From: Escherichia coli | GTDB taxonomy: Bacteria > Pseudomonadota > Gammaproteobacteria > Enterobacterales > Enterobacteriaceae | Reading direction: 5' to 3' (one strand) | DNA length: 64,000 nt | Assembly (NCBI RefSeq): GCF_013122565.1 | Contig: NZ_CP053258.1 | Shown here: positions 5,801 through 11,496 of the stretch, in pieces | Layout of the letters: every line of letters starts with the position of its first letter | Position numbering within the stretch: position 1 is the stretch's first letter | The notes under the pieces: model-generated | Told to the model about the DNA's origin: nothing | Database searches by the model: none | Seen by the model: only the letters and a program-made list of their open reading frames with translations | Program-made: the position numbers and the translations under genes

Positions 5801-9865
<4,065 letters not shown>

Positions 9866-9945
9866 TGTTATCCCTCTGAAGTTCGTTTTTTACCATTTAG
9901 CCATAGTAAAAACATGAATTGTTTGATTTCGCGCATATTCGCTCA

Positions 9946-9995
9946 TAATTCGAAAATGAAACGTGATTTCATGCGTCATTTTGAACATTTTGTAA
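9946..9995. promoter_or_regulatory. Palindromic operator-like elements in the glpA/glpT control region (candidate GlpR sites)
   Basis: atgaaacgtgatttcat palindrome and ttttgaacat half-site in the divergent intergenic region. Confidence 0.4.
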
Positions 9996-10011
9996 ATCTT
10001 ATTTAATAATG

Positions 10012-10027
10012 TGTGCGGCAATTCACA
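10012..10027. promoter_or_regulatory. CRP-like site tgtgcggcaattcaca
   Basis: TGTG-N8-CACA with the correct 16-bp geometry in the glpA/glpT divergent region. Confidence 0.5.
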
Positions 10028-10137
10028 TTTAATTTCTGAATGTTTTCTTAACATCGCGGCAACTCAAGAAACGGCTGGTTCTCCCACTGAATCAGGCTGT
10101 TAATCATAAATAAGACCACGGGCCACGGAGGCTTTCA

Positions 10138-11496
10138 ATGTTGAGTATTTTTAAACCGGCGCCACACAAAGCGCGCTTACCTGCTGCGGAGATCGATCCG
10201 ACTTATCGTCGATTGCGCTGGCAAATTTTCCTGGGGATATTCTTTGGCTATGCTGCTTACTATTTGGTTCGTAAGAACTTTGCGCTCGCTATGCCTTACC
10301 TGGTGGAGCAGGGATTCTCACGCGGTGATTTAGGTTTTGCGCTTTCTGGGATCTCGATCGCCTATGGATTTTCGAAATTCATCATGGGTTCGGTATCGGA
10401 TCGCTCGAATCCGCGCGTTTTCCTGCCCGCAGGTTTGATTCTGGCGGCGGCAGTGATGTTGTTTATGGGCTTTGTGCCATGGGCGACGTCGAGCATTGCG
10501 GTGATGTTTGTACTGTTGTTCCTCTGCGGCTGGTTCCAGGGAATGGGGTGGCCGCCGTGTGGTCGTACTATGGTGCACTGGTGGTCGCAGAAAGAACGTG
10601 GCGGCATTGTGTCAGTATGGAACTGTGCGCACAACGTCGGTGGTGGTATTCCGCCGCTGCTGTTCCTGCTGGGGATGGCCTGGTTCAATGACTGGCACGC
10701 GGCGCTCTATATGCCCGCTTTCTGCGCCATTCTGGTGGCACTATTCGCCTTTGCGATGATGCGCGATACCCCGCAATCCTGTGGTCTGCCGCCGATCGAA
10801 GAGTACAAAAATGATTATCCGGACGACTATAACGAAAAAGCGGAACAGGAGCTGACTGCGAAGCAAATCTTCATGCAGTACGTGCTGCCGAACAAATTGC
10901 TGTGGTACATCGCCATCGCCAACGTGTTCGTTTATCTGCTGCGTTACGGCATCCTCGACTGGTCACCAACTTATCTGAAAGAGGTTAAGCATTTCGCGCT
11001 GGATAAATCCTCCTGGGCCTACTTCCTTTATGAATATGCAGGAATTCCGGGCACCCTGCTGTGTGGATGGATGTCGGATAAAGTCTTCCGTGGCAACCGT
11101 GGGGCAACCGGCGTCTTCTTTATGACACTGGTGACCATCGCGACTATCGTTTACTGGATGAACCCAGCGGGCAATCCGAACGTCGATATGATTTGTATGA
11201 TTGTTATCGGCTTCCTGATTTACGGCCCTGTGATGCTGATCGGTCTGCATGCGCTGGAACTGGCACCGAAAAAAGCGGCAGGTACGGCAGCGGGCTTTAC
11301 CGGGCTGTTTGGTTACCTGGGCGGTTCGGTGGCGGCGAGCGCGATTGTTGGCTATACCGTGGACTTCTTTGGCTGGGATGGCGGCTTTATGGTAATGATT
11401 GGCGGCAGCATTCTGGCGGTTATCTTGTTGATTGTTGTGATGATTGGCGAAAAACGTCGCCATCAGGAATTACTGCAAAAACGCAACGGAGGCTAA
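10138..11496 (+). CDS. glpT: Glycerol-3-phosphate:phosphate antiporter (MFS)
   Basis: 452-aa MFS protein; GGAGG SD upstream; synteny with glpQ. Confidence 0.93.

Follow-up and report, generated by a model that had tools for sequence, protein, structure and literature searches.

The 272-bp gap between the start codons of glpA (ATG at 9865, minus strand) and glpT (ATG at 10138), i.e., positions 9866-10137 of the stretch of 64,000 nucleotides that was analysed (the window), is the well-studied glpACB/glpTQ divergent control region of E. coli. Very probably, the interval is the orthologue of the glpTQ-glpACB divergent control region of E. coli K-12 and works in the same way and, as part of this explanation, the palindrome ATGAAACGTGATTTCAT (ATGAAA-CGTGA-TTTCAT, 9956-9972) is a chance dyad rather than a regulatory unit, the functional part of which is the CRP-type half-site CGTGA(T). 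The control region is already known and the novelty of the main finding is nil, in line with the sequence-only reading, which had recognised a known architecture with nothing unexpected in it. That reading took a chance palindrome for an operator and placed the CRP site correctly; the finding is, therefore, an ordinary one.

The open reading frame glpA (8237-9865, minus strand), the first gene of glpACB, encodes subunit A of the anaerobic G3P dehydrogenase and matches the NCBIfam equivalog model NF008313 with 1106 bits, in agreement with the gene annotated as glpA in E. coli, while glpT (10138-11496, plus strand), encoding the G3P:phosphate antiporter, matches the equivalog model NF008433 with 976.7 bits. 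The genes glpB and glpC are located downstream of glpA, glpQ is located downstream of glpT, and all five products (GlpA, GlpB, GlpC, GlpT, and GlpQ) match NCBIfam equivalog models far over the cut-offs. The spacer with its flanks was matched in 5,419 of the 5,426 complete E. coli genomes, in each case between glpA and glpT. The assignment of the interval to the glpACB/glpTQ control region is borne out by these equivalog matches and by the alignment with K-12 (NC_000913.3, 2352375-2352646, reverse strand; the K-12 coordinate is 2,362,512 minus the window position), which is colinear over 272/272 columns with 0 gaps and only 5 differences.

Compared to the K-12 control region (Larson et al., 1992; Yang et al., 1997), the interval thus has the same flanking genes and the same length, and the CRP 22-mer, the FNR-like motif, three of the four GlpR operators, the glpT -10 element, and the IHF core are identical. 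The five substitutions are 9956 G>A, which is located inside the operator at -28 to -9 of glpA and is the base that perfects the palindrome; 10036 A>C in the glpT spacer, at -25; 10076 A>T and 10084 T>C, both in the IHF-protected leader; and 10134 A>T. We infer that the proteins discussed below also bind the present allele, which has one of these five substitutions inside an operator.

A spacer identical to that of the window was absent from the complete E. coli genomes searched, the best match being 98.9% identical. The spacer alleles of E. coli apparently fall into two classes, 5,281 genomes being 95-99% identical to the window and 138 only 90-95%. Across the locus, SCPM-O-B-8794, which represents E. 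coli in GTDB by its label, shares 91% identity with the window and diverges most at 9990-10070. The best identity of the window to any of the 5,426 complete E. coli genomes is 97.8% over 24 kb (20000-44000) and 98.6% over the kilobase around the glp spacer (9500-10500); the window would, therefore, derive from an Escherichia/Shigella-like lineage without a representative among those 5,426 genomes.

The main CRP site is located at 10008-10029, with the core TGTGCGGCAATTCACA at 10012-10027 and the centre at 10019.5. Its core matches TGTGA-N6-TCACA at 9 of the 10 positions with the correct spacing, and the 22-mer AATGTGTGCGGCAATTCACATT, which was footprinted with cAMP-CRP at -30 to -52 of glpT in EHEC (Kurabayashi et al., 2017; PMC5352689), occurs unchanged at 10008-10029. 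The site overlaps the glpT -35 element (TCACAT), and expression of glpT was undetectable in crp and cyaA mutants (PMC5352689). The motif alone is not significant genome-wide, since 3 cores with at most one mismatch occur in the 64-kb window and 1.86 are expected; when the 272-bp region itself is shuffled, such a core turns up in only 0.8% of cases. The 9/10 core is retained in 19 of 24 aligned sequences and is kept across Escherichia, Salmonella, Citrobacter, Enterobacter, and Klebsiella. The CRP geometry that had been proposed for 10012-10027 is, thus, confirmed by the core, its conservation, and the footprint on an identical 22-mer (PMC5352689).

The glpT -10 element (TAACAT, 10049-10054) and the start region (10059-10061) lie within the conserved TTAACATCGCGGC (10049-10061, plus strand). 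The transcription start of glpT is at 10059 according to the numbering of PMC5352689, and a CRP centre at -41.5 would place it at 10061. The main CRP site is of class II for glpT and is centred at -90.5 relative to the published glpA promoter (P1). As in class II CRP-dependent promoters such as galP1 and melAB, where CRP is bound near -41.5, a 9/10 core is located over the -35 element of glpT, approximately 40-42 bp from the start. Unlike in galP1 and melAB, the same CRP dimer is also found ~90 bp ahead of a promoter that fires in the opposite direction, and it is surrounded by repressor operators with action at a distance.

Some further features were observed around the CRP site. The 20-mer at 10010-10029 scores 13/20 against the GlpR operator consensus; competition between GlpR and CRP at this position is a possibility, and the match could also be a coincidence. 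In the stretch that separates the last GlpR operator from the CRP site (9990-10009), Salmonella, Citrobacter, Enterobacter, Klebsiella, and Kosakonia share the conserved TGTCATAWWTCTGTAACAA, where Escherichia has the unrelated AT-rich TTGTAAATCTTATTTAATAA; it looks as if some site had been lost or replaced in a lineage-specific manner. The CRP-type palindrome GTGATnnnnATCAC occurs upstream of glpA, 59-60 bp upstream of the centre of the FNR site, in Edwardsiella, Pectobacterium, Providencia, Serratia, Yersinia, and Proteus (loci L033, L039, L044, L058, L067, L076, and L080), the corresponding CRP-FNR spacings in Escherichia being 40 and 90 bp.

GlpR operators were scanned for with the half-site consensus that Zhao et al. 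reportedly gave in 1994, WATGTTCGWT, arranged as an inverted repeat and scored over 20-mers out of 20. The top matches in the region are 9918-9937 (15/20), 9878-9897 (14/20), and 9970-9989 (13/20), and 4 of the 20-mers in the region reach at least 13/20 where 0.82 are expected (p ~0.006). According to Larson (1992), as quoted in PMC3050690, the GlpR operators are located at -60 to -41, -28 to -9, -8 to +12, and +33 to +52 of glpACB. The published start of glpA transcription (minus strand) would then be at 9929, since this is the sole position that aligns the intervals quoted there with the consensus matches and with the gaps of 12, 0, and 20 bp; both the operator and the IHF coordinates are second-hand through PMC3050690, and the start is deduced from them. 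A start at 9929 brings three of the four quoted operators into exact register with the top consensus matches, to the base, and reproduces the three gaps. On this mapping of the quoted intervals, the operators are GAAGTTCGTTTTTTACCATT at 9878-9897 (+33 to +52), which is conserved; ATTGTTTGATTTCGCGCATA at 9918-9937 (-8 to +12), the best match; a weak one (10/20) at 9938-9957 (-28 to -9), which includes the window-specific G>A at 9956; and CATGCGTCATTTTGAACATT at 9970-9989 (-60 to -41), which includes TGAACAT (9982-9988) and in which TGAACATT is conserved. The quoted IHF sites are at +15 to +51 and +193 to +227 of glpT (Yang, 1997, via PMC3050690); the former maps to 10075-10111 and contains the core AATCAGGCTGTTA (10090-10102), a match to WATCARNNNNTTR. 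In the coding DNA, 20-mers scoring 12-14/20 against the GlpR consensus were encountered at 10367-10404 and 10478-10497 in glpT and at 9472-9491 in glpA, including a tandem GlpR-like pair at +306 to +343 of glpT; these 20-mers are candidate remote operators of the kind that papers on "action at a distance" imply.

The arrangement of these sites is mirrored in their conservation. We collected 80 glpT loci of the Enterobacterales, aligned 22 spacers of Enterobacteriaceae to the window, and averaged the identity to the window across 12 diverse taxa. The blocks of conservation correspond to the mapped sites, which have identities of 0.73-0.89, vs. 0.37-0.53 for the spacers between them. The operators at 9878-9897, 9918-9937, 9938-9957, and 9970-9989 have mean identities of 0.77, 0.89, 0.78, and 0.73, respectively, the CRP core 0.79, the glpT -10 element with the start 0.71, and the ribosome-binding block of glpT 0.90.

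The palindrome stands apart from these sites. The sequence-only reading had interpreted it, together with adjacent TGAACAT half-sites, as tandem GlpR operators within 9946-9995. The quoted strings indeed occur where they had been placed (the CRP core at 10012-10027, the palindrome at 9956-9972, and TGAACAT at 9982-9988), and the stretch 9946-9995 does contain 12 bp of the operator quoted at -28 to -9 and all of that at -60 to -41, within which TGAACAT is a good half-site (TTTGAACATT, 8/10). However, TGAACAT occurs only once in 9800-10200, so that the plural half-sites fall away, and the palindrome itself lies in the only unprotected gap (12 bp, -29 to -40) among the published operators as quoted in PMC3050690, sharing 2 bp with one flanking operator and 3 bp with the other; the characterised sites, as far as they are quoted there, thus map to other coordinates, and two of the quoted operators and the FNR-like motif are located wholly outside 9946-9995. 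Consensus scans for CRP, GlpR, and FNR, for which the sequence-only reading had proposed a weight-matrix scan, recovered the CRP core, ranked three of the operators on top, and gave an FNR-like motif of 7/10, but the 20-mer centred on the palindrome scores only 6/20 for GlpR, which is the modal background score in the window, and it is not among the 20-mers with at least 13/20. Nor is the palindrome beyond chance as a dyad, since the region has 3 perfect inverted repeats with an arm length of 6 or more and a loop length of up to 12, vs. 1.67 expected (p ~0.26). Its right arm (TTTCAT) is not conserved, being TTCCGT or TTTCGT in Salmonella and Citrobacter, and its left arm is missing from Klebsiella and Superficieibacter, whereas GTGA at 9963-9966 is kept nearly everywhere among the aligned genera. 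The perfect 6-bp arms need the A at 9956; K-12 has a G there and arms of 5 bp, and A9956 is common to Salmonella and Citrobacter. A search for 9940-9995 at 100% identity found none among the matching complete E. coli genomes. We, therefore, rejected the palindrome as a GlpR operator on its score, its position between the operators, its unconserved right arm, and the chance level of such dyads, and consider tandem GlpR operators made up of it and the adjoining TGAACAT to be highly improbable.

It also seems very unlikely that the palindrome region is the site of another regulator, i.e., NsrR through a predicted half-site or Cra/FruR through a TGAAAC-type motif. For strain CFT073 an NsrR ChIP-seq peak was reported in the spacer between glpT and glpA, along with the predicted 11-mer ACGTTTCACTT at a distance of 93 bp upstream of glpA (PMC5320621), and this 11-mer is the complement of window positions 9954-9964. 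However, the summit of the peak is at -41 from the glpA ATG, at ~9906 and off the palindrome, and the scores of the 11-mers were low (PMC5320621). Two predicted NsrR 11-mers in fact lie under the CFT073 peak, at 9954-9964 and 9911-9921 (PMC5320621). As for Cra, AATGAAACGTGATT resembles the consensus RSTGAAWCSNTHHW, but matches to this consensus with at most 2 mismatches number 166 in the window vs. 141 expected, which is the chance level. The main text of the Cra/CRP study that was searched makes no mention of glp genes, and the Cra/FruR reading of TGAAACG was discarded on both grounds.

For the palindrome region, the explanation that we prefer is a chance dyad around a functional CRP-type half-site, and the half-site CGTGA(T) would belong to a weak second site of the CRP/FNR family, CGTGA-TTTCAT-GCGTC (9962-9977, centre 9969.5). 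This probable second CRP site matches the core at 5 of 10 positions with a conserved GTGA; its centre would be at -40.5 of glpA P1 and at approximately -91.5 of glpT, and the homologous 16-mer of Klebsiella oxytoca, TGTGACTTTGTGCGCA, scores 8/10. A weak second CRP site centred on 9969.5 presumably agrees with the K-12 annotation. Several CRP sites in the glpT-glpA spacer have been reported with no positions given (PMC3105977; PMC4790336), and a literature search with the sequence of the second site yielded nothing but primers and an unrelated protocol. Since Kurabayashi et al. (2017) encountered only one CRP-protected region (PMC5352689), we consider a second site at this position only slightly better than an even chance.

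These sites suggest a mechanism in which one strong CRP site (10012-10027), placed over the glpT -35 element and ~90 bp upstream of the glpA start, would be required for transcription of glpT. GlpR bound to the four 20-bp operators would cover the promoter and leader of glpA and would repress both the glpA and the glpT operons until glycerol-3-phosphate releases the repressor. IHF would bind the glpT leader at ~10075-10111 and FNR the stretch 9905-9975.

A generic sigma-70 scan returned as its sole result TTGAAC/AATAAT at 9981-10010, which matches neither known promoter; that the known promoters were missed is an expected outcome because they are activator-dependent. A scan against Rfam found no family above noise. 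An A/U RNA hairpin in the glpA leader (9887-9912) was considered and rejected, since its fold is not better than that of shuffles (z = -1.23) and its stem, judged by eye, is not kept in Citrobacter or Enterobacter.

The position of the FNR-like motif raises a question on the glpA promoter. Kurabayashi et al. named TTGAT-TTCG-CGCAT an FNR-like motif within the 70-bp footprint of FNR(D154A), which starts 32 bp upstream of the CRP site (PMC5352689). This footprint maps to ~9905-9975, where it covers the palindrome too, and the motif maps to 9923-9936 (minus strand; ATGCG-CGAA-ATCAA in the direction of glpA), matching TTGAT-N4-ATCAA at 7 of 10 positions. Relative to 9929, the published start, its centre is at -0.5, an untenable position for an activator. 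The DNA of the motif is protected by FNR(D154A) in vitro (PMC5352689), and in more distant genera the homologous positions match at 9 of 10: Serratia, Yersinia, Pectobacterium, Brenneria, Cedecea, Buttiauxella, and Limnobaculum carry the near-consensus site TTGyTCyTTATCAA. Further into the leader, the near-invariant CATTTAGCCA (9894-9903) reaches past the adjoining operator; positions 9898-9903 are 100% identical across the 12 diverse taxa, and the flanks vary. On the glpA strand it reads TGGCTAAAT (9895-9903), an extended -10-like element (TRTGn followed by NNNAAT) and a candidate -10 of a second promoter (P2). In a search for the composite ATCAA-N18-20-TGnnnnAWT upstream of glpA, 43 of 53 loci of the Enterobacterales have ATCAA followed by such an element, and the spacer is exactly 19 nt in every match at glpA even though 18-20 were allowed; only ~18 unrelated matches occur in 1.16 Mb of sequence. 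Given a spacer of 19 nt and a start ~7 nt beyond the hexamer, predicted at ~9888, i.e., ~41 nt downstream of the published start, the FNR site would be centred at -41.5 and the leader would be 23 nt long. Relative to this predicted start the operator at 9878-9897 would span -9 to +11 and the CRP sites would be located at -81.5 and -131.5.

The comparative evidence for a predicted class II FNR promoter at glpA across the Enterobacterales is strong. Whether such a P2, ~41 nt downstream of the published start and possibly the principal promoter, exists in the present sequence appears to us evenly balanced. The fixed spacing, the near-consensus FNR site in distant genera, the invariant -10-like element, and the odd location of the FNR motif at the published start all argue for it. 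However, the hexamer (CTAAAT) is without the usual A at -11, Escherichia has a degenerate distal half-site in the FNR motif, and the conservation of this DNA in Escherichia could be due entirely to its being a GlpR operator. In addition, the strain without hns and stpA was the only one to show an FNR ChIP peak at glpT/glpA (PMC3688515, supplement), and P2 may already be recorded in EcoCyc, RegulonDB, or Cole (1988). A Cappable-seq supplement has no entries for K-12 23524xx-23526xx and our literature searches found no start-site data for glpA.

Promoters of the ansB type are co-activated by FNR at -41.5 and CRP bound upstream. If P2 is real, its FNR site at -41.5 and CRP-family sites at -81.5 and -131.5 would resemble this arrangement, although, unlike in the ansB type, the putative FNR site of glpA is a degenerate one in Escherichia that serves as a GlpR operator as well. 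Under the P2 reading, the operator quoted at +33 to +52 would be the core operator of this promoter, and the distal FNR half-site would have decayed in Escherichia, Salmonella, and Citrobacter as the DNA became a GlpR operator too. It is a tentative and rather doubtful suggestion that the textbook start at 9929 may not be the FNR-dependent one and that the deeply conserved P2 would drive anaerobic expression of glpACB.

The classical glp control region is, thus, kept intact in the present Escherichia lineage. Within a crowded, AT-rich promoter, the neatness of a palindrome is no evidence for an operator; the genuine operators of GlpR in this region are poor palindromes that were found through consensus scores, published coordinates, and conservation across species. 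If true, P2 would explain the activation of glpA by FNR, for which the published start offers no explanation, and would be of modest importance in that the promoter map of a model regulon would be revised.
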